Assembly (NCBI RefSeq): GCF_053078305.1
Contig: NZ_CP166879.1
Direction: 5' to 3' (one strand)
Length of the DNA stretch: 64,000 bases
The notes below the pieces were generated by a model. It searched no databases and was not told the origin of the DNA. It saw only the letters and a program-made list of their open reading frames with translations. Shown piece by piece: positions 5,155 through 62,623 of the stretch. Numbering within the stretch: the first letter of the stretch is position 1; each line of letters starts with the position of its first letter. Both the position numbers and the translations under genes were made by a program.

Positions 5155-5295
5155 TTACTGCTTACACTGTAAGAACGCCGCAATCTCCGCGCCCGCTATC
5201 CGGAACCGGAACTCGCACAGTGAACTGTGGGTGATCCAGATAATGAGCACTACCGTGATACAAATCACGGTGGTTTTTAACGGTTTTTGCGACAT
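5155..5295 (-). CDS. hok: Hok/Gef-family type I toxin (46 aa), not in ORF track
   Basis: Own translation: MSQKPLKTTVICITVVLIIWITHSSLCEFRFRIAGAEIAAFLQCKQ; TM helix plus LCE-R-R...AAF signature; AAGGAG RBS 9 nt upstream. Confidence 0.6.
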   Translation of the reverse strand: MSQKPLKTTVICITVVLIIWITHSSLCEFRFRIAGAEIAAFLQCKQ

Positions 5296-5493
5296 AAACG
5301 CTTGCTCCTTTTACGGAGAGGCGCTAACCTTCAATTTGCTGAAGATCGAAAGTCAGGCCTCGGGTTAAACATGAATGTTTGTCCGGGGCCTTCGTCTTTC
5401 CGGCCTTCAGGTGTTCCCTCCGGCCATCAGCCAAAGGCACCCGCGCATACTGTACGGTTTTTGTCTCCTTCCGGCAATCCCGGGGCGCGATGT

Positions 5494-29480: not shown

Positions 29481-29660
29481 CTAAATGAGCGGCTCTTCGG
29501 GTTTGCTTCCGGCTGACTGACTGGCGCTGATTTTCTCTGCGGCCCTTTTATCAATCTGCCTGCGCCAGAAATCGCGCACTGCCCTGTACCCACCCGAAAG
29601 AAGATACAGCACACAGACCGCCGTACAGAAGTACAGCATCACCTGATGAATAAATGTCAT
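29481..29660 (-). CDS. Hypothetical small membrane protein (59 aa), not in ORF track
   Basis: Own translation MTFIHQVMLYFCTAVCVLYLLSGGYRAVRDFWRRQIDKRAAEKISASQSAGSKPEEPLI. Confidence 0.4.
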   Translation of the reverse strand: MTFIHQVMLYFCTAVCVLYLLSGGYRAVRDFWRRQIDKRAAEKISASQSAGSKPEEPLI

Positions 29661-29798
29661 AATTTCTTACCGTTATGGTTGACAATAAAAACTGTTTTCA
29701 TTTAAAAAACAACCGATGTACGAAAGCATCTTTTCTTTACATTCTCCATTGGGATTACCTCCGCCAGCTTCCATTCCTGCCGCTGGCGGCTTTTTTTA

Positions 29799-31766
29799 TC
29801 ATGCCGCGACGTCCGCGTTGTTCACTTCCACCTTCACACTGTCAATCAGCAGCGTATATGCCGCCGCCTTTGATATGTCTGTCAGTTGCAGTTTGTCCGC
29901 CGACCCTGATGCCGGAGATTTCACCAGTGTGAACGGTGTACCCCGTTTCTCATCCAGTACCGGCATCACCTGAATGCTGTTGTTTCCGGCAAACTCAAAA
30001 GCCAGTGTGTGCCATCCGTTATCAAAGACCCCGAACGTATCCAGCTTCGCATTCTGCTTCTTGTGGTACATCGCGTTCAGGTTCGTCGCATCCGTCTGCA
30101 GGAAGAAGGACATCAGCATGTCGTTGCCTTCCTCTGACAGCGTCACTCCCTCCGGCAGGGACGGCAACTGCCAGTAAATACCCAGGGCAAACTGATTCGG
30201 CACCAGTGCGCCCGGCACCTTAAACCGCACGCTCACACGTCCGCCTTTCTTCAGCAACTCTGCTCCCTGCCCGGCGGCATCATGCTCCAGAAACCAGATG
30301 TGGCTTTCCGGTTTGTTCAGTTGCAGGGCCTTACCACCGGTGGCACCCTCATCACTGACCACAGCCTCAGCGATGTTTTTATCAACACTGTCTCCGCTCG
30401 CCGGTTTGTGATAATAGCGCCAGCCCTGTGATGCCAGGTCTTCACCGGACGCCAGCAGACTCATCAGGGTTCGGTTACTGACCGGGGCTTCCGGCTCTCT
30501 CTCCGGGCCTTCACCGGAAGGTCCGGTGGGCTTCACCGTATCAGGCTGTTTTCCGGTAATGAATTCAGCGGTTCTCCCGGCATGCACCAGAATCGCCGTT
30601 GCCAGACGGTCGGAAATAATCCCACGGCGTGCCCAGGTGCTGAAATGGCTGGCCCTGTCCACAGATGTCCAGGTCTTCTGGTCATTACGCCACTTTGAAC
30701 CGTAATAACCGACGGCTTCCAGGTCCGGGTCTTCTGCCGGGTCATTGGTCTGCACATTCGCACCATTCTCATCCGTCATTAACGGTACAAAGAAAATGTT
30801 CTGCGACTCCTTACCCTTATACCCTCCGTATACTGATGCATACCCTTCCGCATGACGCTGCTTCCAGAAATACGTTGTGTCCCCGCAAATCCACGGTACC
30901 GTTGATGCGCTGCCTCCTGTGCACTGTGATGCCTGACCGGCAAGGTCCGTTCTGAACTGATTCACCATCGCACTAAACAGCCCCGGATGCTGCGCATGCG
31001 TCCCCACTGCCGCATCACCTTCTCCCTGCATCCACACCACCGCAAGCAGACGGTTTTTCGGGTTCTTCGCCAGTGCGGCTTTAGTCCGGCTCACCAAATC
31101 CTGATACAGCGGCTTACCCACACCCCAGCGCAGTGAATTTTCCGATGCACCGGCTGATTCGCTGTATGTGCCGTCTGCACCCGTTGTGAATGCCGAAGCA
31201 CCACGGCAGCACGGAACCAGCAAAATGCCCGCATTCGCCGGTATAAACGGCAGCAGTTTTTTGGCGATATGCAGCCCCTGCCCCACGGTTCCGTACTGCC
31301 CCTTTGACAGGTCCGCTTTCGGATGGTTAAGACGGCTCATGTCCTGCACATCATGCAGACAATGGTCCGCCGGAATAATGTCGTTATACTTACAGGCGGC
31401 ACCGCCCGGTGTCACCGTACTGCGACGCGCCAGCTGCTTAATACGCGGGTCCGGACGGTCATATGTCTCCGGCAGCGGAAGGCCTTCACCATACGACATG
31501 CCGTTTGACTGCCCCGCCAGAACAACAACAAAGTAATACTCCGGTTCGCTGGTGGCGCTGATAACTGTGCCTTCTCCATCCGACGGCTTCACCACCACAG
31601 GTGTGGTGACATCACCTTCCGCCGCAATAGCCTGCATCAGGGTATAAGGCGTGATGGCCACCGGACTGCCAAATGGCTGCCACCCCTCCTTCAGTTTTTG
31701 AGTCAGTCGCTCCGCAAGGTCTGACGGCGACGCCGCCCTGACCACGTCATAGTGTTTAAATGCCAT
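29799..31766 (-). CDS. nanS-p: NanS-p-like sialate O-acetylesterase (DUF1737 N-terminus + SASA/SGNH domain)
   Basis: VVLAGQSNGMSYG catalytic-Ser motif; 655 aa; occupies the position seen downstream of stx in Stx phages. Confidence 0.7.
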   Translation of the reverse strand: MAFKHYDVVRAASPSDLAERLTQKLKEGWQPFGSPVAITPYTLMQAIAAEGDVTTPVVVKPSDGEGTVISATSEPEYYFVVVLAGQSNGMSYGEGLPLPETYDRPDPRIKQLARRSTVTPGGAACKYNDIIPADHCLHDVQDMSRLNHPKADLSKGQYGTVGQGLHIAKKLLPFIPANAGILLVPCCRGASAFTTGADGTYSESAGASENSLRWGVGKPLYQDLVSRTKAALAKNPKNRLLAVVWMQGEGDAAVGTHAQHPGLFSAMVNQFRTDLAGQASQCTGGSASTVPWICGDTTYFWKQRHAEGYASVYGGYKGKESQNIFFVPLMTDENGANVQTNDPAEDPDLEAVGYYGSKWRNDQKTWTSVDRASHFSTWARRGIISDRLATAILVHAGRTAEFITGKQPDTVKPTGPSGEGPEREPEAPVSNRTLMSLLASGEDLASQGWRYYHKPASGDSVDKNIAEAVVSDEGATGGKALQLNKPESHIWFLEHDAAGQGAELLKKGGRVSVRFKVPGALVPNQFALGIYWQLPSLPEGVTLSEEGNDMLMSFFLQTDATNLNAMYHKKQNAKLDTFGVFDNGWHTLAFEFAGNNSIQVMPVLDEKRGTPFTLVKSPASGSADKLQLTDISKAAAYTLLIDSVKVEVNNADVAA

Positions 31767-31963
31767 GAATCCTCCCGGTCGGGATAATGTTGTGAGTCAG
31801 ATAAGGGGCGGGCTGAAGTCCGGAAGTTACAGGACAATGGCAGGAGGAAGACTACAGCCCGCAATACGAAAAAGGCCGCGCAGTTGCGCAGAGTGATTAC
31901 TGTCGGGTATTATTCGCCAGCTGAAAAATTGATTACTTCACGTTTTGTTGTTTATTCCTTGCT

Positions 31964-31993
31964 GCCCGCATCTCACCATGCGGGCTTTTTTTA
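31964..31993 (+). terminator. Rho-independent terminator on + strand
   Basis: cccgcat-ctcacc-atgcggg hairpin followed by cttttttta. Confidence 0.5.
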
Positions 31994-32000
31994 TCCATAA

Positions 32001-32238
32001 GAAAGCCCCTCCGGAGAGGGGCTGGAGTAGCGCTATGTACCGTTCATTACATGATGCCGGGTGCCTCCCGGTGAGTTCAGCCCGGTGCCACCGAACCCGC
32101 GTCATTCTCGCTAACGATCATCAGAGACCATTCCGTACACCAGCCGCCCCTCCGCACAGGGGGATTCATCATGCAGAAATTTTTTAACAAATTCTCAGTC
32201 GGGAAGACAACCTTCAACTGACTGAATTGTGAGCAACA
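32001..32238. repeat. Structured repeat unit 1 (~238 bp), diverged copy of unit at 32489-32723
   Basis: Shared blocks: gcccctccggagaggggc hairpin, gccgggtgcctcccggtgagttcag, cccctccgcacagggggattca-ATG, ttttaacaaa, ctgaattgtgag. Confidence 0.7.
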
Positions 32239-32488
32239 TAGCATTTAACGGGGAACCTGTTTTCTGCAGTAAAAAGGCCCACCGGAGCGGACGGGCCTGG
32301 AAGGATAGCGGTCATGTGATGCCGGTTTCCCGGTAACTCAGCACCGGTATCTGAGTCAACGTTTTCTCTACTGGGTCATTTCCGATACGCCCTGCCTGCT
32401 GACAGGCTTTCATCACATCTGAAAATATAGCACCCTGACTGATACTGTAGTACCCAAGGTTCCAGAAACTGTGATGTATCCGGCACAG

Positions 32489-32723
32489 AAAAGCCCCTCC
32501 GGAGAGGGGCTGACGCTGCGTATCTGTATCATCATGCGCATGGTGCCGGGTGCCTCCCGGTGAGTTCAGTATCAGCACCTGAACCCGCACAGAAAGGATA
32601 AGGGATGTAACCAAACACCTGTCGCTGATATGCCCCTCCGCTCAGGGGGATTCACCATGCCAGTTTCTTTTAACAAACTCCCCGCAAATCAGACAACTGT
32701 CAACCGTCTGAATTGTGAGACAT
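32489..32723. repeat. Structured repeat unit 2 (~235 bp)
   Basis: Same block order as unit 1; hairpins preserved by compensatory changes (ccgcaca vs ccgctca loop). Confidence 0.7.
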
Positions 32724-32789
32724 TTAAAATTTTCGGGGCAACAGGAAGACAATCATCACGACACCGGCAACCAGCGACCGGCACCAGAT

Positions 32790-33725
32790 TTAACGTATGT
32801 GCACACAACCTGAACCGGCATCAAAAAACAAACCGTGCACTGACAGAAAACGGGAAACCTCCGTCCGCTGATCATCACTCATTAAGGACCACACAAAGGC
32901 GTTATGCTCATCTTCAAGTTTCCGTCTTCTTGTTTGCCTTACAAGCAACTCAGCCGTCACCTGTACAATGTCAATGACCACCTTCTCTTCAGCAATGTAC
33001 GGCCTGTTCCAGTTCTCTGTGTTAATCTTCTCCGTCACCGGCGCTGACTTTTTGCAAGTTTCCCCATTAAACCCGACGCCATAAACAACAACATCATCGC
33101 TTTGCTTTTCGTTATCAATAATGACGAATAATACAGAAACCGATGTATCAGCGAACCCGCCTGAAATCTGAACCAACTCAACAACGCGGTTGCCAAAATA
33201 CTGACGCATTGCCAGCTCACCACGCCTGTAACCAACCCCGGGAAAGCACAAAAAAAATGAAAATCTTGCCTTCATACTCGCCAGAACATAAAACGCGTCA
33301 TCCAGAACACCGGAGGTCTTTTTATAAGGCATCATCGCTGAAATCTTCTCCCTGATATCCGCGCTCTGTGCTTTGTACTGTAGCGAAAAAGGCGGATTCA
33401 TGATGACACAATCGAACGTGTCCGTGTCACTGACATCATCTATGGCGTTGAAGAAATTTTCATTGACCGTCTTCACTGTGGCATCCGGAAAGTTATCCGG
33501 GATATGCAACAACGGAGAGGCCTGTATATCCACAGCATACAGACTTCCCACCGTGAGAAACTGCTCCAGTTGCCCGGAGCCACACGCACCATCAAAAATA
33601 CTCAGGGGCAGATCACCACAATATTCCCGCACTTTTTCAGCGACAAACCGACGCAAAGGAACGGACGTGATGTACTCTGCGTATTTTCTGGCGACTTCGC
33701 GATTATTGGATTCCTGAAAAACCAT
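32790..33725 (-). CDS. Putative N6-adenine DNA methyltransferase, gamma-class-like (motif I before NPPF)
   Basis: IFDGACGSGQL (SAM-binding) then VIMNPPF; 311 aa, too small for a separate target-recognition domain; lies at stx-equivalent locus. Confidence 0.6.
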   Translation of the reverse strand: MVFQESNNREVARKYAEYITSVPLRRFVAEKVREYCGDLPLSIFDGACGSGQLEQFLTVGSLYAVDIQASPLLHIPDNFPDATVKTVNENFFNAIDDVSDTDTFDCVIMNPPFSLQYKAQSADIREKISAMMPYKKTSGVLDDAFYVLASMKARFSFFLCFPGVGYRRGELAMRQYFGNRVVELVQISGGFADTSVSVLFVIIDNEKQSDDVVVYGVGFNGETCKKSAPVTEKINTENWNRPYIAEEKVVIDIVQVTAELLVRQTRRRKLEDEHNAFVWSLMSDDQRTEVSRFLSVHGLFFDAGSGCVHIR

Positions 33726-33810
33726 TTGTGAAAGGCTCTGTGGTTGATATGCGCCGGGCGTGGCACGGAGACAAAAAAGGCCCGCAAAAGCGAGCCTGGG
33801 AAAATAAGTG

Positions 33811-33887
33811 TGGCGCGTTGTACTGGATTCGAACCAGTGACCGATTGCTTAGAAGGCAATTGCTCTGTCCGACTGAGCTAACAACGC
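33811..33887 (-). tRNA. argO: tRNA-Arg (anticodon UCU), argO-like
   Basis: Cloverleaf folded by hand: acceptor GCGTTGT/ACAACGC, anticodon loop CTTCTAA, T-loop GGTTCGAATCC, CCA end. Confidence 0.75.
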
Positions 33888-33900
33888 ATGATGCTGATAA

Positions 33901-33977
33901 TGGACCGCCATCGGGGACTTGAACCCCGCGCAGCCAGCTTCGAAGGCTGGCGCTCTGTCCCGATGAGCTAATGGCGG
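33901..33977 (-). tRNA. argN: tRNA-Arg (anticodon UCG as read), argN-like
   Basis: Acceptor CCGCCAT/ATGGCGG, anticodon loop CTTCGAA, T-arm CGGGGTTCAAGTCCCCG. Confidence 0.65.
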
Positions 33978-33986
33978 TATGTGATA

Positions 33987-34062
33987 TGGTGGCCCTTGCT
34001 GGATTTGAACCAGCGACCTGGCGATTATGAGTCGCTCGCTCTCACCACTGAGCTAAAGGGCC
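33987..34062 (-). tRNA. ileZ: tRNA with CAU anticodon, ileX-like (tRNA-Ile2 via lysidine, or Met)
   Basis: GGCCCTTTAGCTCAGTGGTGAGAGC...CTCATAA...GGTTCAAATCC...CCA; close to E. coli ileX. Confidence 0.75.
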
Positions 34063-34102
34063 GGGTGCAGGATAATAACGGTACGTAACTAATCCTGCAA
34101 TA

Positions 34103-35161
34103 TCATCCGTTCTGACTGGCTAAATCCTGAACTTCCCTGACCGTCTGCTCAAAACGTTCAGTCTCCAGCTCAACGCCAGTTGCACGACGCCCCAGCGCCA
34201 TCGCGGCTTTGACTGTCGAACCCGACCCCATGAAAAAATCTGCAACCAGGTCCCCCGGACGACTGCTCGCGCTGATTATCTGCTGCAGCATTTCTGCCGG
34301 TTTTTCGCACGGATGTTTCCCGGGATAGTACTGCACCGGTTTATGCGTCCACACATCCGTGTACGGCACCTGCGCCGTCACACCGAAATACCGCCGCAGA
34401 TGCTTATATTCACTCTGCAGTTCCGCATACTGCCGGTTCAGTGAAGTATATGTCTCCAGCAGCTGGTGGTGGGGCTTTTCCAGTTCACCCCGCTGATGCT
34501 TCTCTTCTGCCACCCGGGCAAACAGCGCCTGTAATTTCAGATAATCACTTTCGTTCGGCAGCTGCCACTGACTGGCACTGAACCAGTGCGACACCATGTT
34601 TTTCTTTCCTGTGGCATCCACTATCTGTTTTGCCGTTATCCCCAGGGCAGCGCGCGCATCACGAAAGTAAGCAATCAGCGGGGCCATCACATGCTGTTTC
34701 AGTGCCCTGCCCTTCGCCTCATACCCGGCATCTTTCGGACGATACGGCCCCTGATAATGTTCCGCGAACAGAATGCGCTCTGTGGCGGGGAAATACGCCC
34801 GCAGGCTTTCCTTGTTGCACCCGTTCCAGCGTCCGGACGGCTTTGCCCAGATGATATGGTTCAGCACACTGAAGCGTTCACGCATCATGATTTCAATGTC
34901 AGACGCCAGGCGATGACCACAGAACAGGTAAAGACTTCCGGCAGGTTTCAGCACCCGCCAGAACTGCGCCAGACACTGGTCCAGCCACTTCAGGTAATCA
35001 TCGTCGCCCTTCCACTGGTTATCCCAGCCCTCGGGCTTCACTTTAAAGTATGGCGGGTCTGTGACTATCAGATCGACAGAGTTTTCCGGTAAGGTCTGGA
35101 TAAATTCCAGGCAATCAGCGTTGATTAACTCACAACTGGATATTTTTACAGTATTAAGCAT
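34103..35161 (-). CDS. DNA methyltransferase, beta-class (DPPY ... FxGxG), 352 aa
   Basis: DLIVTDPPYF near N-terminus; DFFMGSGSTV near C-terminus. Confidence 0.75.
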   Translation of the reverse strand: MLNTVKISSCELINADCLEFIQTLPENSVDLIVTDPPYFKVKPEGWDNQWKGDDDYLKWLDQCLAQFWRVLKPAGSLYLFCGHRLASDIEIMMRERFSVLNHIIWAKPSGRWNGCNKESLRAYFPATERILFAEHYQGPYRPKDAGYEAKGRALKQHVMAPLIAYFRDARAALGITAKQIVDATGKKNMVSHWFSASQWQLPNESDYLKLQALFARVAEEKHQRGELEKPHHQLLETYTSLNRQYAELQSEYKHLRRYFGVTAQVPYTDVWTHKPVQYYPGKHPCEKPAEMLQQIISASSRPGDLVADFFMGSGSTVKAAMALGRRATGVELETERFEQTVREVQDLASQNG

Positions 35162-35311
35162 GGATCATTAAGCCTGTCTCTGATAGGCTCATTCTGCTTT
35201 TGCGCAAAGCAGTGGGCCTGAGGTTTGCTTGTGACCCCAACGCATGAGCAGATGGCTGGTGAGTGCCCCTAACACCCACCAGCCGCCCATTTACCACAAA
35301 TAAAAAAGCCT

Positions 35312-35509
35312 TCAGGACTGAAGGCGTCTGTAACAACCGAACTGATAGTCTGCCAGACCCGCCATAACAAGCTGGGTCAGTATTAACTGACAGCGTTCGC
35401 GTGAAAGGTAAGTATTCTGCGCAATCTCCCCGACTGTCGCCGGTTCGGTGACGCTTAATTCATTAAACACCACTCTGGCGGTTTCGGTCATATCCTGCTG
35501 TTTCAGCAT
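35312..35509 (-). CDS. Hypothetical small protein (65 aa); start uncertain
   Basis: MLKQQDMTETARVVFNELSVTEPATVGEIAQNTYLSRERCQLIL...; longer track ORF crosses a terminator hairpin so N-terminal extension rejected. Confidence 0.3.
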   Translation of the reverse strand: MLKQQDMTETARVVFNELSVTEPATVGEIAQNTYLSRERCQLILTQLVMAGLADYQFGCYRRLQS

Positions 35510-35632
35510 GTCTTTTTCCCTTTTCCGGTTAACGTGACACACCAATAACTCTTGTCGAAAAAGCCAGCAAGCTGAAAGACCCGTATTCGCAACCACCAGC
35601 GCGTTTACTGTACTGACGCGATTTTCGGACAT

Positions 35633-35660
35633 AAAAAAACCACCTGGCGGTGGTTTTTTC
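35633..35660 (-). terminator. tR'-like rho-independent terminator downstream of Q
   Basis: aaaaaaaccacctggcggtggttttttt palindromic hairpin with flanking A/T runs. Confidence 0.55.
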
Positions 35661-35720
35661 TTACTTTGCCATCGCGTACAAAATCGGCAAAATATCAGAT
35701 TTATACGAAACATACGCGAT

Positions 35721-36410
35721 TTAATTGACTTTTGCAATATCTCGTCGTGAAAAGGTCGCTTTTTGTTGCGCTCTTATTTTCACGGAGCAAATCAAGGATT
35801 CTCTATCGAGGCGCTTAAAAATATCGCACATCTCACGCCAGTAGTTCGCATAATTATGGCTCCAGTTATCAGGCTTAACTCCACACAGTCTGGCAAGCTC
35901 CTGTCTCTGGTAGACCTCACACCCGGTAACCCATCCTCTGACATCCTGTGCCGCCAGCCAGATCAACTTCTTCACACGCTCCAGCGTTTTCACTGCAATT
36001 TTTCTGGTACCAGACTGAGTTTTAAATTCATTCCACACCCACTGCGTTATCGCGATCTGATGCTCCCAGCAAATGTTTCCGCCATAACACCACAACAACC
36101 ACGCCTTCTGATGTTCTTCCAGTTCCAGAAGGGCACGCCGCCACGATGATGTTGCAAACTCAACAGGACTGACCAGCGCAATTGATGAGCCTTTCGCCAG
36201 TGATTGTTTACCCGGGATTGGGGGATTATCCCGCGTGATCATTTTTCCGGTTACCTCATCGCGGTAACGAATTTTTTTGCGTCTGTAACGCCCTGTATCG
36301 AACAGGGCATTTTCCTGCCAGGCTTCCAGTTGACCTTTTGTCGCCCCACTGAGATCCGCAGTGGCAATCATGAGTTGCTCACGAACAAACTGTAAATACT
36401 GGTTATTCAT
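35721..36410 (-). CDS. Q: Late antiterminator Q-like protein
   Basis: Position directly upstream of terminator and late genes, downstream of rusA; ~230 aa as Qin-type Q proteins. Confidence 0.55.
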   Translation of the reverse strand: MNNQYLQFVREQLMIATADLSGATKGQLEAWQENALFDTGRYRRKKIRYRDEVTGKMITRDNPPIPGKQSLAKGSSIALVSPVEFATSSWRRALLELEEHQKAWLLWCYGGNICWEHQIAITQWVWNEFKTQSGTRKIAVKTLERVKKLIWLAAQDVRGWVTGCEVYQRQELARLCGVKPDNWSHNYANYWREMCDIFKRLDRESLICSVKIRAQQKATFSRRDIAKVN

Positions 36411-36766
36411 GCACACCCCACCTCTGTAATTTTTATCTCCAGCCGTCCACCAGATACTGGCTTGCCACGTACAATATTGATTTCATCAAACTGCTCGTCA
36501 TCAATAAGCACTCCCGCATGCGTCAGCGCATCCAGCGGTGCTTTCAGAATATTGTCCAGGTCACGACGACGCTTATCCGGTGGCTCTGCAATAATTTTTA
36601 TTGCCAGCCGTCCGGACAGGCTTAATTTCAGCCGCTGCTGGCGAACAATAAGCGCCACTGCACGGCGATAACGCTCCCCGGCTTTTGATACAAAATATGT
36701 GCTGCCACGGCGTCGCCAGTAAGTGTTCACCGTCGGCGGGTAAGGTAAAACCAAATCTATGAGCAT
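36407..36766 (-). CDS. rusA: Holliday junction resolvase RusA
   Basis: ...PYPPTVNTYWRR...KRRRDLDNILKAPLDALTHAGVLIDDEQ...GGRLEIKITE matches RusA. Confidence 0.85.
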   Translation of the reverse strand: MLIDLVLPYPPTVNTYWRRRGSTYFVSKAGERYRRAVALIVRQQRLKLSLSGRLAIKIIAEPPDKRRRDLDNILKAPLDALTHAGVLIDDEQFDEINIVRGKPVSGGRLEIKITEVGCA

Positions 36767-38690: not shown

Positions 38691-38846
38691 TTACTTCTCA
38701 GATTCGTAGTCTACGAAGACAGCAACCTCCGTCTGGCCGGTTCGGATTCGTACCTCGCAGAGGTCTTTCCTCGTTACCAGTGCCGTCACAACAACGGTAA
38801 TACAGATGACGATCAGGGCGATTAACATCGCCTTTTGCTGCTTCAT
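38691..38846 (-). CDS. hok: Hok-family type I toxin (51 aa)
   Basis: MKQQKAMLIALIVICITVVVTALVTRKDLCEVRIRTGQTEVAVFVDYESEK; track ORF extends upstream (mok-like reading frame). Confidence 0.8.
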   Translation of the reverse strand: MKQQKAMLIALIVICITVVVTALVTRKDLCEVRIRTGQTEVAVFVDYESEK

Positions 38847-39136
38847 AGCCTGCTTCTCCTTGCCTTTCGGCACGTAAGAGGCTAACCTACGTTTGTGAAG
38901 CATAGATTGGGCCTCAGATTAATGTTAAGCGTCCTGCAAGACGCGTAATGTTAACTGGGGCTTTTCTCTGTCTGCCTTACGGCGGCATGCCCGAGGCAGA
39001 CAGCCTCAAGCACCCGCAGCAATTCTACTTAACTCTTCTTTCCCCGCAAACCGTTTTTATCCCCAGCGGCAAATCGAATACACCACCAGCGCCACCGCCA
39101 TTGCAATACCAACATTTGAGAAGGCCTCAGGCCAGC

Positions 39137-43796: not shown

Positions 43797-44234
43797 TCAA
43801 TGCACCACAACAGACTCGCCGGATGACCCGCCGTCGCTGAAATACGCTTTCCGGTAAACGGCCTGGACAGCATCATCATGTGCATCAATTGCCGTGCTCA
43901 ACGCTTCCTGCGCCGCCAGTAATGCACGGCGCTCAACAGTGTCAAAAATACTGAGGTGATAACGCAGTTCACGCGGAAGAACAGTCAGGATAGCCGGAAT
44001 TAGTGCCTGAATTTTTTCAACAGCATCAGGCGTATCCTTTTCAAGCCAGCGAAAAATATTTTGTATATTCAATCCAATACCCTCTGTCGTAGAGGTGTCA
44101 TGCATTGGTGGATAAGTCATTTCAAGCTCAAAATATGCTGTCGCTATATCATCAGCGATTTTTTTGCGCCCTACCCTCGGATAAAGCAGCCACGCATTCA
44201 TCGCCATGCGGATGTGCTCATGCTTGATTTTCAT
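43797..44234 (-). CDS. YdaT-like (CII-like regulator / toxin YdaT family)
   Basis: MKIKHEHI...ALIPAILTVLPRELRYHLSIFDTVERRALLAAQEALSTAIDAHDDAVQAVYRKAYF... resembles Rac YdaT. Confidence 0.6.
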   Translation of the reverse strand: MKIKHEHIRMAMNAWLLYPRVGRKKIADDIATAYFELEMTYPPMHDTSTTEGIGLNIQNIFRWLEKDTPDAVEKIQALIPAILTVLPRELRYHLSIFDTVERRALLAAQEALSTAIDAHDDAVQAVYRKAYFSDGGSSGESVVVH

Positions 44235-44491
44235 GAATCAACTCCCGCCGCTGCTTGTGCGTTAGCCTGATACTCAACAGGTAAACCATCGGTTGGATTA
44301 GGGTATTTATCAGGGCGCAATTCATGCGGAGTTACTCCCCAGTCAAGCGCCTCACATGCTGGTATAACCTCCTCCGCTGGCACTCGTTTTTTAAACCACC
44401 CACTTATGGTTTGCGGTGTTTTACCAAGACGACGCCCTAATTCTGATTGGCTCATTATTGACAGGATTTTCACTTGAGTACTTTTTTGCAT
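44231..44491 (-). CDS. Cro-like HTH protein (YdaS/DicC-type)
   Basis: ...SQSELGRRLGKTPQTISGWFKK... HTH; divergent from repressor gene. Confidence 0.6.
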   Translation of the reverse strand: MQKSTQVKILSIMSQSELGRRLGKTPQTISGWFKKRVPAEEVIPACEALDWGVTPHELRPDKYPNPTDGLPVEYQANAQAAAGVDS

Positions 44492-44611
44492 GTTTCCCTC
44501 CGAACTTTACGATGACACCGATGATTACAAATTTAAATTTAAATTTCAACTTCTATTTGTAATGCCACTTATCAATTTTTTCTGTAGGATCGCGGAACTA
44601 GTTTACGAGGG
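44492..44611. promoter_or_regulatory. Immunity-region intergenic spacer with candidate operators / divergent promoters
   Basis: Inverted repeat ttacaaat ... atttgtaa flanking aatttaaatttaaattt, between divergent repressor and cro-like genes. Confidence 0.4.
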
Positions 44612-45010
44612 GTGGTGATGATCTTTGTAAAACGCCTTCAGCAGGTGTTGCAGGAATTGAATATAAACCAGTCAGAGCTGGGAAGACGTCTTGGTGTAAA
44701 ACCCCAATCCGTGCAAGGTTGGTTGAAAGGCGTGATGCCAAGAATGGATAAACTGGAAAAATTAGCAGAGCTCTCACAACATCCCGTCCATTGGTTCTTT
44801 ATGGAAGAAGAAACTCTCGGCGATAAAATGGCTGTATCCAGTAATGACAACCAACCGCAACTTACAGAACAACAACGAAAAATCATATCGCTTTTAGATG
44901 AGTTACCTCAAAGCGACGCAGAGCAGATCATTCGTGATATGGAGCAAAAACGCGATTTCTATAAACGGAAACTTGAAGAGTTACTGCGGCAGAAAAACAA
45001 AACTGCCTGA
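44612..45010 (+). CDS. Immunity repressor, DicA/RacR-like (HTH only, no peptidase domain)
   Basis: ...LNINQSELGRRLGVKPQSVQGWLKG... HTH; C-terminal ...LTEQQRKIISLLDELPQSDAEQII... resembles DicA. Confidence 0.65.
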   Translation: MVMIFVKRLQQVLQELNINQSELGRRLGVKPQSVQGWLKGVMPRMDKLEKLAELSQHPVHWFFMEEETLGDKMAVSSNDNQPQLTEQQRKIISLLDELPQSDAEQIIRDMEQKRDFYKRKLEELLRQKNKTA

Positions 45011-45056
45011 TGCATTCCTTTTCTGGAACGAGCATCAGGCAAATGACTAGCAGATT

Positions 45057-45416
45057 TTATAATCCAACCAGGCTTTCCAGGGGGATACCAAATTGATTAT
45101 GAAGACGGCGAATCATTGGTAACGTAAGGCTTCTGGTACCATTCAACACCTCATAAACCCGATTTTTTTTCCCAATTGCGGGTTCCAAATCTTTCACAGT
45201 CAGCCCCTGCTGTTCCATGCGAAATCTTATAGCTTCAATTGGGGATGGTGGCTCAATGGGATAATGTTTTTTTTCATATTCCTCTATTAGCAAACACATC
45301 ACCTCAAAAAAATCCCCCTCAGGCGTGTCAATTTCGGGCTCATTGTCGAACATGGGTTCAACAGCACGCAACGCGGCTTCATAATCTTGCTCTGTACGAA
45401 TAGGTTTGATGTTCAT
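45057..45416 (-). CDS. higA: HigA-like antitoxin (C-terminal HTH)
   Basis: ...GLTVKDLEPAIGKKNRVYEVLNGTRSLTLPMIRRLHNQFGIPLESL...; downstream of and adjacent to toxin. Confidence 0.65.
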   Translation of the reverse strand: MNIKPIRTEQDYEAALRAVEPMFDNEPEIDTPEGDFFEVMCLLIEEYEKKHYPIEPPSPIEAIRFRMEQQGLTVKDLEPAIGKKNRVYEVLNGTRSLTLPMIRRLHNQFGIPLESLVGL

Positions 45417-45418
45417 GC

Positions 45419-45721
45419 TTACTCCAGTTCGATGGTATCAGCATCAATAGCATCGTATTCCTTGTGGTTTCCGATGAATTTAACAAATACCCATCCTCGC
45501 TGATACGCAATTGCAACAATTAAACGGTAATGATTACCTTTTATGTTGAATACCACGCGCCGGTTTTTCAATATACTGGCCGTTCGGTATTGTGCCTTAA
45601 TGTCTGCTGGGCTTTTCCAGTCAGCTTTTGCCGCCTCATCCACCCATGCCCTTAGCGGTTGTTCTGCATCAGGATTCTCCGCCCAAAAATCCCTGAGTGT
45701 TTTAACTGAGATAATCTTCAT
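45419..45721 (-). CDS. higB: HigB-like toxin (RelE/ParE fold); start trimmed to ATG at 45721
   Basis: MKIISVKTLRDFWAENPDAEQ...NIKGNHYRLIVAIAYQRGWVFVKFIGNHKEYD... Confidence 0.65.
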   Translation of the reverse strand: MKIISVKTLRDFWAENPDAEQPLRAWVDEAAKADWKSPADIKAQYRTASILKNRRVVFNIKGNHYRLIVAIAYQRGWVFVKFIGNHKEYDAIDADTIELE

Positions 45722-45995
45722 AACTGTATAGTAGTCCCATTTTGGGACTGATGCAACAGCTCGCAATTACAAATTTAATAATAAACATGTTGACCAGTTA
45801 AATTTTAATTTGTAAATTGTATCCATAAACCCACCCCGCCCCACAGAACGCAGGGCAATACTTCGAGTTACCCGGCAGTGGTCAGGGGTTAAGTAGCCAG
45901 CCTGAGGCGTATGAACATGACGGCGGGGATTACGTTTAACTATGCAGCAGGTTTTTTGTTCCGCTACCCCGGCGTTAAGGGGAAATGAGGTCAAC

Positions 45996-46148
45996 ATGGA
46001 TACGCTCAATCTTGGCAACAACGAATCTCTGGTATGCGGTGTGTTCCCTAACCAGGACGGCACGTTTACCGCGATGACGTATACCAAAAGTAAAAAGTTT
46101 AAAACCGAAGCTGGCGCGCGTCGCTGGTTAGCCAGAAACACTAACTGA
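45996..46148 (+). CDS. ydfA: YdfA/YdaF-like small protein (DUF1391)
   Basis: MDTLNLGNNESLVCGVFPNQDGTFTAMTYTKSKKFKTEAGARRWL...; GAGG RBS. Confidence 0.6.
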   Translation: MDTLNLGNNESLVCGVFPNQDGTFTAMTYTKSKKFKTEAGARRWLARNTN

Positions 46149-46412
46149 TTAGCACCAGTAAAAACAGGTTGCCACTGGTTAATTTACCCTGAAAAGTCAG
46201 GGCACAACAGAAAGCACACGGCGAAGGCGTCTTTTCCTTAGAAGGCTTGTCGTTAGATTTCTTCGACCGTGTGCTTCCGGTTGTGGCAATCCGCGAAATG
46301 GCGCGGCGGTAAATATGGCTGGGGGTTTTTATTTCTTTTCCCCTCATTGAGGACACCGGGTTGTCAGGTTGACCATATGCCTGAGTGACAACCCCGCCAC
46401 AACATCTCCATG

Positions 46413-46475
46413 TTTCAATGGCAGTGGTACCTTTGGCGGCATCAGTTTATTAGCTTTCTGATGTCCGCCCTTTTT
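46413..46475 (+). ncRNA. dicF: DicF-like sRNA (ftsZ translation inhibitor homolog)
   Basis: tttggcggcatcagttta...ctgatgtccgccc + T-tract; downstream aaagtgaattttgtgatg..gtgaatgcggct.agcgcacgcggaac recalled as matching the Qin dicF region. Confidence 0.5.
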
Positions 46476-46933
46476 AAAGTGAATTTTGTGATGCGGTGAA
46501 TGCGGCTAAGCGCACGCGGAACAGTTAAAACCGTAAAGTGGTCTTTTACGGGGCGTAACGGGCATACTTCTGTATTCCGGCGTTAATTGTTAACTGGTTA
46601 ACGTCACCTGGAGGCACCAGGCACTGCATCGACAAAGTTCACTTCGGTGATGAAAGGTAAGAGAAAATGTTGAATGTAGCTATTGAAAACCAGAACGGGT
46701 GGAATTATAGTGCACCTGCACCTCATAAAGCGGGTGCCGGGATTGCTACCCCGATGTTCATCATGGCGCATAACCGCGCTCAGGCGTTTTTTTTATGCGT
46801 AATGCACAGCCACATTCAGATTATGGTGGGGCGTGCAGGGCAGCCGCAAGGCTGGCCGGGTTCCATGATGACCGGTTGTAGCAACCCTGTGCGTCTCACC
46901 ACCCATGAGATTGCTACCTCCGGTGGTGAGTTA

Positions 46934-47518
46934 ATGAAATTCATCATGGAGGCTGCCATCATGGCTACTATCCCTGCCCTTTCTCACCCTGAAATTACTA
47001 TCGCCAATGGGCGTGCTGTTACATCCTCTTTAGCTGTTGCCGAGTATTTCCGGAAACCACACAAAGATGTACTGGCAAAAATTTCACGTCTAGACTGTTC
47101 AGCAGAATTCACTGAGCGAAATTTTTCGCCCAGTGAATATACCGACTCAACCGGGCGCAAACTCCCTATGTACCAAATCACCAAAAACGGCTTCGTTTTC
47201 CTGGTGATGGGCTTCACCGGCAAAAAAGCCGCTGCATTTAAAGAAGCCTACATCGCTGAGTTCGATCGCATGGAGAAAGAACTGCGCCAGAATAACGCCC
47301 CGTCTCCCGACAAAATGATTCACGGGGACGGACGTACCCTGGTTATCCGTCTCGACGAACACGGCAATATCAAATTCACTGAAACCGTTCCTGATGGTGC
47401 AATGGTCTGCACCCTGGATACCTTCCAGTTTTATCTGGAGAAACAAGGCTGGACTCTTGTAAACCGGAGCGCAATTAAAAATATGACTGTGGAGCAATTA
47501 CTAAAAATTCATTGTTGA
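46934..47518 (+). CDS. rha: Rha-family phage regulatory protein (start uncertain: 46934 or 46961)
   Basis: ...ITIANGRAVTSSLAVAEYFRKPHKDVLAKISRL...PMYQITKNGFVFLVMGFTGKKAAAFKEAYI... Rha domain. Confidence 0.65.
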   Translation: MKFIMEAAIMATIPALSHPEITIANGRAVTSSLAVAEYFRKPHKDVLAKISRLDCSAEFTERNFSPSEYTDSTGRKLPMYQITKNGFVFLVMGFTGKKAAAFKEAYIAEFDRMEKELRQNNAPSPDKMIHGDGRTLVIRLDEHGNIKFTETVPDGAMVCTLDTFQFYLEKQGWTLVNRSAIKNMTVEQLLKIHC

Positions 47519-47528
47519 GGACGCGATA

Positions 47529-47717
47529 ATGGAAACGTTATTACCAAACGTTAATACGTCTGAAGGGTGTTTTGATATTGGTATTCTGCTCAGTAACCGG
47601 GAGTTTACTGAAGATGCCATTAAGATGAGAAAATATGAGCCTTATCTTCTCAATGATAATTCCATACTCTCCAGAATTGCCCTTCTTAAACTTGGTATTT
47701 TCGGAGGGCAGCAGTGA
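47529..47717 (+). CDS. dicB: DicB-like cell-division inhibitor
   Basis: METLLPNVNTSEGCFDIGILLSNREFTEDAIKMRK... matches DicB N-terminus. Confidence 0.7.
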   Translation: METLLPNVNTSEGCFDIGILLSNREFTEDAIKMRKYEPYLLNDNSILSRIALLKLGIFGGQQ

Positions 47718-47902
47718 CTTCTGCATTTGCACTGGTGATGACGGTTTTTCTTATAACGGGTGAGCCACAGAATGTGATTACCGGAATTTATGCCAGTAAA
47801 GAATCATGCCTCCGTGCAAGAGACGAGCAAAAAATTTCTGGCGAATGCCTCCCGTTAAAAAAAGTATCGCTGTACCTGAATAACGAAATACCGGCTGGAT
47901 AA
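47714..47902 (+). CDS. ydfD: YdfD-like small membrane (lysis) protein; GTG start
   Basis: (M)TSAFALVMTVFLITGEP...EQKISGECLPLKKV...NEIPAG resembles Qin YdfD. Confidence 0.6.
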   Translation: MTSAFALVMTVFLITGEPQNVITGIYASKESCLRARDEQKISGECLPLKKVSLYLNNEIPAG

Positions 47903-47994: not shown

Positions 47995-50433
47995 ATGAGC
48001 ACTGATAAAGAAGAATTTTCGCTATATTGCGAAGCAAAAAATGACAAGGTCAGAAAACGCCTTGGGATTAAAGGAGGTTTTTACTGGACTACAGCAAAAA
48101 AATTATCTGTTGCCATCTCACGGTGCGTTGTTGCAATGGACGAGGCAGGCTACGACGCTGATGATTTCAAAAAACCTGTCCGCGTCCATTTCCCCGTTGT
48201 GAATGACCTTCCACCGGAAGGCGTGTTTGATACCGAATTCTGCAACCGCTATGAAAAAGGCGGGGAAGATGGCATCACAATGATATTTATAGCGCCTTCC
48301 CCCTCAGTTCAGGACAAACCAGCCAGCACTGACAATACCAACGTCAATGGCGAAGACATGGCTGAGATTGAGGATAATATGCTCCTGCCGATTTCCGGTC
48401 AGGAACTGCCCATTCGCTGGCTTGCGCAACATGGCAGCGAAAAACCGGTAACGCACGTTTCACGGGAAGAACTTCAGGCATTACATATCGCACGAGCTGA
48501 AGAACTGCCGGCTGTTACTGCCCTGGCTATTTCCCACAACACAAAGCTGCTCGACCCGCTGGAGATTCGCGACCTTCATAAACTGGTACGCGACACAGAC
48601 AAAGTTTTCCCTAATCCCGTTAATTCCAGTCTGGGGTTAATGACTGCTTTTTTCGAAGCATACCTGGACGCTGACTATACCGATCGAGGTCTGCTGACAA
48701 AAGAGTGGATGAAAGGAAATCGTGTTTCTCGCATCACCCGCACGGCTTCCGGTGCAAATGCCGGTGGCGGAAATAAAACCGATCGTAATCCTGACTTAGT
48801 ACACACCCTCGATACTCTGGATGTGGAGGCTGCAGCAGCCACACTTCCGATGGATTTTAATATTTATGAAATACCCGTGAGCGTTTATCGTCGCGCAAAA
48901 GAAATCGTCCTGAAAAAAGAAAGTCCGTTCAGGGAATGGTCCGCAGCACTTCGCGCAACCCCTGGTATCCTGGACTATTCCCGCGCAGCTATTTTTGCAC
49001 TTATCCGGAGCGCCCACCCTGAGTTTTATCACTACCCGGGACGCCTTCAGGGGTATATCAATGCCAACCTGACAGAAACTGATCACGAGAATCCCACAGC
49101 TGAAACGCTCATGGCTGCCCGGCATACACCGGAAAAAGATATCCTGGAAGAAATTAACGGCGGACTGGCTGCTGAGTGCAAAACAGAAGAAGAAAAAAAT
49201 GATGAAGAAAACCCGCAACCATCTGGCGCAATGGCAGATGAACAGGCAACGGCTGAAACAATGGCAGCGGATACAGTTGAACATCATCAGGACCCGCAGC
49301 CGCTGGATGACAAGTCACAGGTAAAAGTTACTGCTGAAGAAGTAAATAAAATTATGGAGGCAGCAGACATCAGTCGACCAGATGCCGACAAATTGCTTGC
49401 CGCTTCTCGTGGTGAGTTTGTTGAAGGGATTAGCGACCCGAATGATTCGAAATGGGTTAAGGGGATTGAAACCTGCGATTCTGTGAACCAGAACCAGCAA
49501 GAAACGGAACAGAACGGTCAGAAAGCGGAACAAAACAGCCCAAATGCGTTACAAAACGAGCCAGAAACGAAACAACCTGAACCAGTAGTGCAACAGGAAG
49601 AGGAAAAAGTTTGTACCGCATGCAATCAGACTGGTGGTGGTAACTGCCCTGATTGTGGCGCAGTGATGGGGGACGCAACCTACCAGGAGACATTCAACGA
49701 AGAAAGCCAGGATGAAGCCCGGGAAAAAGATCCGGAGGAAATGGAAAGTGCCGGACTCCCGAACAAGGAGTGCACCGAAGGCGATCAACATGCCAATGGC
49801 AATAATGAAACAGGCGAGACAGCAAATCCCTTAATTAAGGTGAACGGTCATCGTGAAATCACATCCACCAGCAGGTTATGGCACCATCTGATGATTGACC
49901 TTGAAACAATGGGCAAAAATCCTGACGCACCAATAGCCTCAATAGGCGCTGTATTTTTCGATCCACAAACCGGAGAGCAGGGGCCTGAATTCAGCAAAAT
50001 AATTGATATGGGTACATGTGGCGGCACTGTAGACATAAGCACCATCGAATGGTGGCTTCAACGCTCTGGCGAAGCCCGTGCCGCCATTTTAGCTGATCGA
50101 ATACCGCTTGATGATGCGCTTTTACAATTACGGGAATTTATAGACGAAAACTCCGGTGAGTTTTTTGTTCAGGTCTGGGGAAATGGAGCCAACTTCGACA
50201 ACGTGATTTTACGCCGTTCATATGAACGGCAGGAGATCCCCTGCCCGTGGCGTTACACCAATGATCGTGATGTAAGAACGATTGTTGCCCTGGGGCTGGT
50301 GATGGATTTCGATGCTCGAAGTGTCATCACATTTGAGGGTGAACGCCATAATGCCCTGCACGATGCGCGTTACCAGGCAAAATACGTTTCAGCTATCTGG
50401 CAAAAACTGTTCCCGAATCAGGCTGATTTTTAA
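47995..50433 (+). CDS. Large early-left protein: RecE-like N-terminal region + acidic linker + Cys4 zinc ribbon + C-terminal DEDDh 3'-5' exonuclease domain
   Basis: C-terminus MIDLETMG ... WGNGANFDN ... [10 protein letters not shown] (Exo I-III motifs); [16 protein letters not shown]; N-terminal blocks recalled as RecE-like. Confidence 0.6.
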
Positions 50434-62603: not shown

Positions 62604-62623
62604 TACTGTACATCCATACAGTA
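62604..62623 (+). promoter_or_regulatory. LexA (SOS) box upstream of sulA
   Basis: TACTGTACATCCATACAGTA fits CTGT-N8-ACAG, 23 nt upstream of sulA ATG. Confidence 0.85.

Follow-up and report, generated by a model that had tools for sequence, protein, structure and literature searches.

The window analysed here is a 64,000-nucleotide (nt) stretch of contig NZ_CP166879.1 (NCBI RefSeq assembly GCF_053078305.1), and the locus under study, at 43797-47902, covers the immunity genes and the early-left control region of a lambdoid prophage that looks complete and adjoins yccA. This placement follows from the list of open reading frames (ORFs) and the RefSeq annotation of a relative, the 99.4% identical locus of Escherichia coli FHI_NMBU_10, which was used to place the genes. 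One strand encodes a short repressor, a ydfA homologue, a DicF-like RNA element followed by a structured spacer, a Rha-domain regulator, dicB and ydfD; YdaT, a YdaS/Cro-like regulator and a HigBA pair are encoded on the other (Table 1). An earlier note on this DNA had described a Qin-like division-control module with Rha inserted between dicF and dicB. All the ORFs that it named are present in the ORF list where it placed them; as a whole, its observation is partly confirmed and its interpretation partly supported. Every part of the locus belongs to a known kind, and we consider it likely that they make up a mosaic E. coli lambdoid prophage in which a Qin-type dicBF operon is combined with an RNA-gated cassette of the P1 immI, P4 CI and Gifsy-1 isrK type, the first ~98 codons of the ORF annotated as a 283-amino-acid (aa) Rha/Ash protein (46667-47518) being RNA genes and not a protein domain.

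Table 1. Features of the locus; positions are those of the 64,000-nt window.
Feature	Position	Strand	Evidence
YdaT, CII-like activator	43797-44234	-	58% identical to Rac YdaT, E 8e-52; PHROG 163 (CII-like), E 5e-37
YdaS/Cro-like helix-turn-helix (HTH) regulator	44231-44491	-	PHROG 35, E 5e-25; 42% identity over 50 aa to Rac YdaS
Operator-like palindrome TTACAAAT...ATTTGTAA	44524-44563	.	Between the Cro-like and repressor genes; inverted repeats I5, I11
Short HTH immunity repressor, DicA-like architecture, 130-132 aa	44618-45010	+	Hidden Markov model and alignment
HigA-type antitoxin (HTH)	45057-45416	-	PHROG 1373, E 2e-41; RefSeq annotation of the 99.4% identical locus
HigB-family toxin	45419-45721	-	PHROG 5734, E 2e-46; RefSeq 'type II toxin-antitoxin system HigB family toxin'
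Left operator/promoter candidate	45765-45818	+	TTACAAAT half-sites around TTGACC-17-TAAATT, upstream of ydfA; repeats I2, I4, I14, I17
ydfA homologue (DUF1391)	45996-46148	+	88% DNA identity to K-12 ydfA; PHROG 751, E 2e-34
DicF-like RNA / terminator hairpin, 'class II' allele, replaced seeds	46420-46475	+	Alignment, Rfam, folding
Structured spacer, multi-branched, closed by a ~22-base-pair (bp) long-range helix	46477-46645	+	Minimum free energy -69.3 kcal/mol, z -5.7
Inserted cassette (relative to Qin), 862 bp	46642-47503	+	BLAST break-points against K-12 and an O26-type relative; junction sequences
Promoter-like site TTGAAA-17-TATAGT	46683-46711	+	Best of the region, 10/12; ends 7 nt upstream of the IsrK-like RNA
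IsrK-family RNA with decoy sites a1 (46743-46749) and b1 (46758-46766) and weak terminator	46718-46794	+	Rfam isrK (RF01394) 58.1 bits, gathering score 50
C4/CI-family antisense RNA, b' loop 46863-46871, a' 46878-46884	46819-46906	+	Rfam C4 (RF01695) 77.9 bits, gathering score 45
C4 target sites a2 (46911-46917) and b2 (46941-46949)	46911-46952	+	Motif search, duplex energies
Rha-domain regulator / putative antirepressor, 185 aa	46961-47518	+	PF09669, E 1.5e-30; TIGR02681 105.4 bits against 45.95; PHROG antirepressor families
dicB, cell-division inhibitor	47529-47717	+	NCBIfam NF049927 109.2 bits, cut-off 100; 60% identical to K-12 DicB
ydfD homologue (DUF1482)	47714-47902	+	Overlaps the dicB stop; 48% identical to K-12 YdfD; PHROG 1092, E 4e-33

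A Rha-domain gene does lie between dicF and dicB, as had been claimed, but the insert also holds two RNA genes. The window corresponds at 46184-46641 to the K-12 stretch from 3' of ydfC via dicF nearly to dicB (80% identity), and from 47504 onward it matches the start of K-12 dicB. The cassette between them has sharp ends with imperfect direct repeats (ACAAAGTTCACTT / AAAAATTCATT, at 46634-46647 and 47497-47511), the right end lying just before the dicB Shine-Dalgarno sequence. Each repeat is similar to the right-hand arm of the spacer helix of K-12, and sequence that in K-12 lies upstream of dicB serves here as the last codons of Rha. Within the cassette, a promoter-like site kept in eight of nine related loci precedes an RNA that scores above the gathering threshold of the isrK family and also gives a weak c4-a1b1 match; it ends in a short G+C stem and U8, has the Rha gene downstream and would be transcribed from the predicted promoter. 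The C4-family RNA that follows matches its Rfam model over the full length (1-87). Its target site b2 abuts the Shine-Dalgarno sequence GGAGG (46948-46952), 8 nt before the ATG at 46961, and so overlaps the ribosome-binding site of rha. The 64 kb contain exactly three occurrences of the composite motif TTGCTAC...TCATCATGG, against 0.00 expected by chance: as a1b1 in the IsrK-like RNA, as the reverse complement in the C4 loops a'/b', and as a2b2 downstream. The cognate C4-target duplexes of the window have predicted energies of -8.8 and -16.0 kcal/mol.

The same cassette is found at the same place in 10 of 120 IMG/VR loci (L006-L125) covered by a pattern scan for dicF alleles, behind both of the main allele classes described below. 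Of 5426 complete E. coli genomes, 333 have the dicF-cassette-dicB layout (at least 80% query coverage), strain 042 among them, and 7 have the whole 4.1-kb combination; the isrK-C4 block alone is found in 183 sequenced phages, in features named antirepressor, transcriptional regulator or ash family protein. A search of a limited literature collection found no description of the cassette as a recurrent insert in dicBF operons. In the cassette alignment, most substitutions cluster in the a and b sites, which change together: across nine loci, b1/b'/b2 form six co-varying classes and a1/a'/a2 form two, with complementarity to two targets retained. Cognate duplexes range from -8.8 to -17 kcal/mol, against mostly -2 to -9 kcal/mol for non-cognate ones; the window's own a'/a2 pair (-8.8 kcal/mol) does not discriminate between the two, and its a-class was not seen in any other complete module among the IMG/VR loci. 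For the C4/CI family, P4 served as the reference and P1 was likened by description. With the P4 CI RNA included, 99.6% of cells are paired in the 27-pair C4 fold, and in seven of these pairs both partners have changed; such support was reached by 0 of 500 shuffles, and slid controls were 36-44% paired, which indicates a conserved fold. One IMG/VR locus (L092, 6291-7060) carries a tandem, partly duplicated isrK-C4 block, the first copy of which is chimeric (a1 of the window's class, C4 of another) and suggests recombination between specificity classes.

The reading frame over these RNA elements does not behave as a protein-coding sequence. Between 46667 and 46960, variable sites are spread evenly over the codon positions (34/98, 34/98 and 34/98), whereas the N-terminal Rha domain has 26, 24 and 65 of 108 and the C-terminal domain 20, 12 and 42 of 77; since the third-position bias starts there, protein-type selection begins at about 46961. 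The ATG at 46961, with its Shine-Dalgarno sequence, is the sole start kept in all loci, the ATGs at 46934 and 46946 being non-conserved, and, as far as sequence comparison can tell, Rha most likely starts at 46961 and not at 46667. A 9-codon ORF in another frame (46905-46934, MRLLPPVVS) lies over a2; its terminal TAATG overlaps the ATG at 46934, which is not conserved, and its own ATG is absent in the other loci. A plain protein-coding gene for a two-domain, 283-aa Rha/Ash protein, inserted in a Qin-like operon whose DicF, DicB and YdfD act as in K-12, would explain why the ORF 46667-47518 is open and so annotated in RefSeq, why Pfam assigns it Ash and Rha domains, why many 283-aa proteins stand in the databases, and why the frame is kept across a 3-nt indel. 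We regard this as improbable: the Ash part shows no codon periodicity where the Rha part is strongly periodic, the hypervariable sites alter amino acids and retain RNA complementarity, Rfam matches above their gathering scores fall on the same bases, a promoter-like site and a terminator lie inside the supposed ORF, the frame is closed upstream of the C4 block in one locus (L031), and the seeds of the DicF-like element have been replaced.

The domain known as Ash deserves separate consideration. Phage_ASH (PF10554) matches aa 14-109 of the long ORF (window 46706-46993), which is exactly the RNA block, and this part lacks the signature of coding sequence (34/34/34 against 26/24/65 and 20/12/42 in the Rha domains). 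The immunity factor of phage P4 is the processed CI RNA, not a protein. In P4 (L127, 8168-8705), an obsolete 'cI gene product' ORF matches PF10554 and contains the Rfam C4 match (74.9 bits), with an isrK-family match (60.8 bits) just upstream, and the epsilon helper derepression protein of P4 belongs to a different family, PF25738; one study used PF10554 as the profile for epsilon/Ash. In Stx phages, 'Rha/Ash' proteins have been described next to cI, with no function assigned to Ash (PMC8951638). We give an even chance to the view that PF10554, as found in E. coli prophages, Stx phages and P4-like satellites, is not a protein domain but a conceptually translated RNA immunity locus (a1b1/IsrK, then C4/CI, then a2b2) that exists in many mutually non-cross-reacting classes, one of which has here been inserted in dicBF as an RNA checkpoint for the regulator, DicB and YdfD, and possibly for the exonuclease, excisionase-like (DUF4224) and integrase genes beyond. 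A search of a limited literature collection found no paper that links IsrK/orf45 to C4 or calls Ash an RNA footprint. An annotated long 'Rha/Ash' ORF would hide two RNA genes here and likewise in Stx phages, where this could bear on the induction of toxin phages.

Three known systems resemble the cassette. In phage P1, immI consists of c4-icd-ant, C4 is required to silence ant, and Icd blocks cell division (PMC8198154). The cassette shares with P1/P7 immI the C4-family RNA whose loops are complementary to upstream a1/b1 and downstream a2/b2, the placement of b2 at the next gene's ribosome-binding site, the union of a regulator or antirepressor and a division inhibitor in one transcription unit, and specificity alleles that differ between relatives, as those of P1 and P7 do. 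It differs in that the inhibitor, DicB, is unrelated to Icd and follows the regulator instead of preceding it, and in that the regulator has a Rha domain. P4, with an immunity region ordered seqA - CI RNA - seqC, has the isrK and C4 families in the same order and the 'Ash' match over both, and the alignment of its CI RNA to the window's C4 shows compensatory changes; P4, however, terminates its own leader transcript before replication genes, whereas in the window rha, dicB and ydfD lie downstream. The IsrK RNA of Gifsy-1 activates, in trans, the inactive read-through transcript of isrK-orf45-anrP, switching on translation of the antirepressor (PMC4825925), and a processed 'orf45' RNA of ~80 nt (STnc1160) exists (PMC7067206). 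Gifsy-1 and the window have in common an IsrK-family RNA with its own promoter (predicted in the window), a leaky terminator, a ~90-nt block conserved in nucleotides and not in amino acids, and an antirepressor-type gene; in Gifsy-1, orf45 is separate and its stop overlaps the anrP start, whereas the frame in the window is fused to Rha and the module lies inside a dicBF operon. Phage P1 is mentioned 0 times in the Gifsy-1 paper (PMC4825925).

By analogy with P1, P4 and Gifsy-1, the cassette would most likely work as follows. The promoter-like site would drive the short IsrK-like RNA, and read-through would yield the C4-type RNA, whose loops a' and b' would pair with a2 and b2, block Rha translation and polarise or prematurely terminate transcription. 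The IsrK-like RNA, through a1 and b1, would compete for C4 or remodel the leader, and expression would be switched on. dicB starts 10 nt after the rha stop, and a terminator search found no convincing + strand terminator between the two, so C4 would also silence dicB-ydfD on transcripts that cross the cassette. Since any such transcript, including one from the repressor-controlled left promoter, would carry a2/b2, the module may gate dicB, ydfD and genes beyond. The dicBF operon of K-12 has dicBp as its sole promoter; with an antisense-RNA cassette and a promoter-like site directly ahead of dicB in about 6% of complete E. coli genomes, as opposed to the single DicA-repressed promoter, control of the toxic dicB may differ there from K-12. 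That the cassette is instead a decaying remnant without a regulatory role here would agree with the partial or duplicated chimeric copies elsewhere (L092), but in the window the three site pairs are all intact and complement one another, the C4 fold is fully paired, the Rha coding part is under purifying selection and the promoter-like site is conserved, and we consider decay highly improbable.

The element upstream of the spacer is the second subject on which the locus departs from expectation. Aligned with K-12 dicF, it keeps the flanks, the position, the processing context and the hairpin, but both seed regions have been replaced. AAGTGACAACCCCGC...TCAAT upstream and TTTTTAAAGTGAATTTTGTGATG downstream are retained, as are the U-tail and the stem ends GGCGG/CCGCC. 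Of the 13 positions in the 5' tail, 6 agree with K-12; the 5' stem arm agrees at 13 of 14, the loop and 3' arm together at 11 of 21, and the end at all 6. On Rfam DicF (RF00039), which has a gathering score of 48 bits, the element reaches only 36.4 bits (E 2e-5 with 5 kb searched), against 76.7 bits for the K-12 dicF control in a like search. The hairpin (-17.6 kcal/mol, z -2.4), with an 11-bp stem, one bulge and then UUUUU, has the features of a terminator and is somewhat more stable than its K-12 counterpart. Among the 120 IMG/VR loci, about 100 carry canonical (class I) dicF and about 15 carry class II alleles, in which the stem is GGCGGCAUCAG/CUGAUGUCCGCC, the 5' tail varies and the loop lacks CUCC; the stems of the two classes show a C-G / U-A compensatory difference, and a third dicF type, immediately behind a tRNA, is found in L027. 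In loci that lack the cassette, both classes lie 171-198 nt upstream of dicB, and the window's element thus occupies the dicF position of a dicBF operon. Its stem is that of class II, its loop and tail are its own, and it occurs in 4 of the 5426 complete E. coli genomes. Because class II alleles score 34-45 bits on Rfam DicF, they are missed by the threshold of 48, and a search of a limited literature collection found no description of them.

K-12 DicF uses its 3' region to pair with the ftsZ ribosome-binding site and its 5' end to pair with xylR; the 3'-region point mutation DicF23 weakens ftsZ repression, and DicF9 and DicF21, also in the 3' region, abolish it (PMC5069750). The K-12 loop CUCCG, which faces GGAG of ftsZ in the cofold, is UUAGC in the window allele, so that this complementarity to the ribosome-binding site is gone. 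The predicted cofolding gain with the ftsZ leader is -8.6 kcal/mol, compared with -16.3 kcal/mol for K-12, cofolding being a weak discriminator, with shuffled small RNAs at about -10.7 +/- 3.4 kcal/mol and averages of about -11 to -12 kcal/mol; weak as it is, the measure agrees with the loss of the seeds. When duplexes were predicted with intramolecular structure ignored, DicF and ftsZ formed long, meaningless pairings with either allele, and cofolding was used in its place. The RNA might still repress ftsZ through the conserved GGCGG/CCGCC arms and other contacts, which would keep all three effectors: position, flanks, hairpin and U-tail are as in dicF, the Rfam E value is the one given above, and the cofold still yields an extended duplex with the ftsZ leader. 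We think this unlikely, since the loop facing GGAG has been replaced, the loop and 3' arm, where mutations in K-12 impair ftsZ control (PMC5069750), depart from K-12 at 10 of 21 positions, the gain does not exceed that of the shuffled controls, and the greater stability of the hairpin reduces access to it. The element is most likely a terminator and processing element, possibly also a small RNA, any such activity being probably not aimed at ftsZ; repression of ftsZ is doubtful. The earlier statement that the prophage carries at least three division or lysis effectors (DicF, DicB and YdfD) plus a YdaT-type protein therefore does not hold as it stands, given the swapped seeds and the loss of the anti-ftsZ CUCC. 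The DicF and DicB of pathogenic E. coli are commonly taken to act as those of K-12, and a published dicF survey was limited to sequences >99% identical; with a recurrent class that has swapped seeds and falls below the Rfam threshold, counts of 'dicF' overstate the number of ftsZ-targeting RNAs. The main value of the analysis lies in this caution on DicF function and in the corrected annotation of the Rha ORF.

Several points weigh against our reading of the cassette and the DicF-like element. The cassette promoter is a consensus match only. The gating of dicB-ydfD by C4 would follow from gene spacing and the P1/P4 precedent alone. The frame is open through the C4 region in nine of nine loci and through the IsrK region in eight of nine. 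The ATG at 46823 is the counterpart of the first AUG of Gifsy-1 orf45, and because orf45 is translated and needed for anrP expression, an N-extended Rha from this ATG is possible. The poor discrimination of cofold energies leaves residual ftsZ pairing by the DicF variant compatible with the data. Finally, the C-terminal domain of Rha is 99-100% identical in loci whose repressors are 26-35% identical to that of the window.

The last point bears on what Rha does. Its assignment to the Rha family, as made in the earlier note, is borne out and the domain call is firm (TIGR02681 and PF09669; Table 1). An antirepressor role is plausible, because it matches PHROG antirepressor families, related phage genes are so annotated, and the repressor at the locus is of the short, antirepressor-dependent type of Gifsy and Qin. 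A repressor-specific antirepressor is disfavoured, since the C-terminal domain does not covary with the repressor; compared with L017, L046 and L076, that domain (47285-47515) is 99-100% identical, against about 80% for the N-terminal Rha domain. It is thus tentatively conceivable, though we put it somewhat short of an even chance, that Rha is not the antirepressor of this repressor and that its target is conserved, be it a host factor, a feature common to many short repressors, or DNA, with Rha as a transcription factor. Near-identity of the C-terminal domain despite very different repressors would fit such a target, as would the presence of the cassette in 333 genomes when this immunity region co-occurs in 7 only, the winged-helix DNA-binding fold of Rha (PMC8951638), and the fact that the Gifsy-1 authors ascribe the AnrP effect to 'activated transcription' (PMC4825925). 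Set against this are the PHROG matches and phage annotations just mentioned, the control of antirepressors by this cassette type in P1 and Gifsy-1, and the dependence of short repressors of this kind on antirepressors.

The left operon around the cassette is Qin-type, and the immunity side is Rac-like, not Qin-like, judging from gene content and similarity; the description of the whole as a Qin-like module stands for ydfA, the dicF locus, dicB and ydfD, but not for the immunity genes. As in K-12 Qin, ydfA, the dicF locus with its flanks and structured spacer, dicB and ydfD follow in the same order, and operator-like sites of a short repressor overlap the left promoter region. Unlike Qin, the window lacks ydfB and ydfC, a loss that had gone unmentioned, its DicF seeds are replaced, and DicB, YdfD and the repressor are 60%, 48% and only 22% identical; the cro side resembles Rac and not dicC, a HigBA pair separates the repressor gene from the left promoter, and the 862-bp RNA-controlled cassette puts a promoter-like site before dicB, where K-12 has a single promoter. 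The DicB and YdfD homologues are confirmed: DicB, of 62 aa, passes its NCBIfam cut-off and has ydfD next to it, with a C-terminal half divergent from that of K-12 DicB. The absence of a lambda N gene is likewise upheld, the ORF list showing no N-like ORF on the + strand between the repressor and ydfD.

The repressor has the architecture of DicA, but does not qualify as a member of the DicA family by the curated test, because it scores 50.1 bits on NCBIfam DicA (NF007257), for which the cut-off is 101. It aligns end to end with DicA at 22% identity and is 23% identical to RacR, so the label DicA-like applies to its architecture and not to family membership. RefSeq starts it at 44618, and the program-made ORF uses a GTG at 44612. 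It shows no match to an S24 peptidase domain, and, having no recognisable protease domain, is probably not self-cleaving; DicA of Qin is a short repressor under the control of an antirepressor. YdaS and YdaT are both present as had been noted, but YdaT, named there alongside the division or lysis effectors, is by its PHROG family and the K-12 annotation a CII analogue and not such an effector. It is similar to Rac YdaT over its full length and is placed after the cro-like gene, which showed no similarity to DicC when compared. Downstream of YdaT on the - strand lie a DUF1376 protein gene and then a P-like replication protein gene. The likeness to Rac (racR - ydaS - ydaT - ydaU) thus extends from YdaT (58%) and the YdaS-like protein (42% over 50 aa) to the DUF1376 replication protein next to them, whereas the repressor and the Qin-type left operon differ.

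In this arrangement, the rightward arm (- strand) would run from the Cro-like YdaS to the CII analogue YdaT and the replication genes, and the leftward arm (+ strand) would comprise the short repressor and, past the HigBA pair, the Qin-type dicBF operon. The palindrome at 44524-44563 has an 18-nt match, 94% complementary, to a site at 45798-45815, and the promoter-like match within the left operator region spans 45790-45818. These operator-like repeats, common to both promoter regions, fit control of both arms by one repressor, which would presumably bind at each. The HigBA pair (45057-45721, - strand) between the repressor gene and the left operator/promoter had not been mentioned in the earlier note.

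The structured spacer is the counterpart of the K-12 dicF-dicB spacer, to which it is 80% identical. In every locus examined, the spacer (46491-46629 in the window; 4433-4642 in K-12 locus L001) gives a match to STnc100 of 29-38 bits, below the gathering score of 47, which suggests distant common ancestry of the two. STnc100 has been described as a prophage small RNA related to PasD. A put-type antitermination RNA was considered for the STnc100-like segment and found no support, the match being sub-threshold in every locus. At 31993-32203 and 32483-32689 (- strand) and 33814-34062 (- strand), in the late region, two full STnc100 copies (164 and 135 bits) lie 3' of three tRNA genes and adjoin a 655-aa ORF and methyltransferase-like ORFs. 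DicF-like hairpins were looked for upstream of both copies and none was found, and 29500-36500, viewed at the level of ORFs of 85 aa or longer, showed no stx genes.

A perfect LexA-box core (CTGT-N8-ACAG) is absent near the cassette promoter; the sole one in the 64-kb window lies at 62606-62621, near the host sulA at the right end. Downstream (3') of ydfD, an 812-aa ORF (47995-50433) annotated as 'exonuclease' has a long acidic, low-complexity middle and a nuclease-like C-terminal end, and in the FHI_NMBU_10 locus it is followed on the same strand by a DUF4224 gene and an integrase gene. Two matches to sok-family antitoxin RNAs, at 38841-39015 and at 5284-5442 (- strand), with 118 and 63.5 bits, point to hok/sok-type modules in the prophage.

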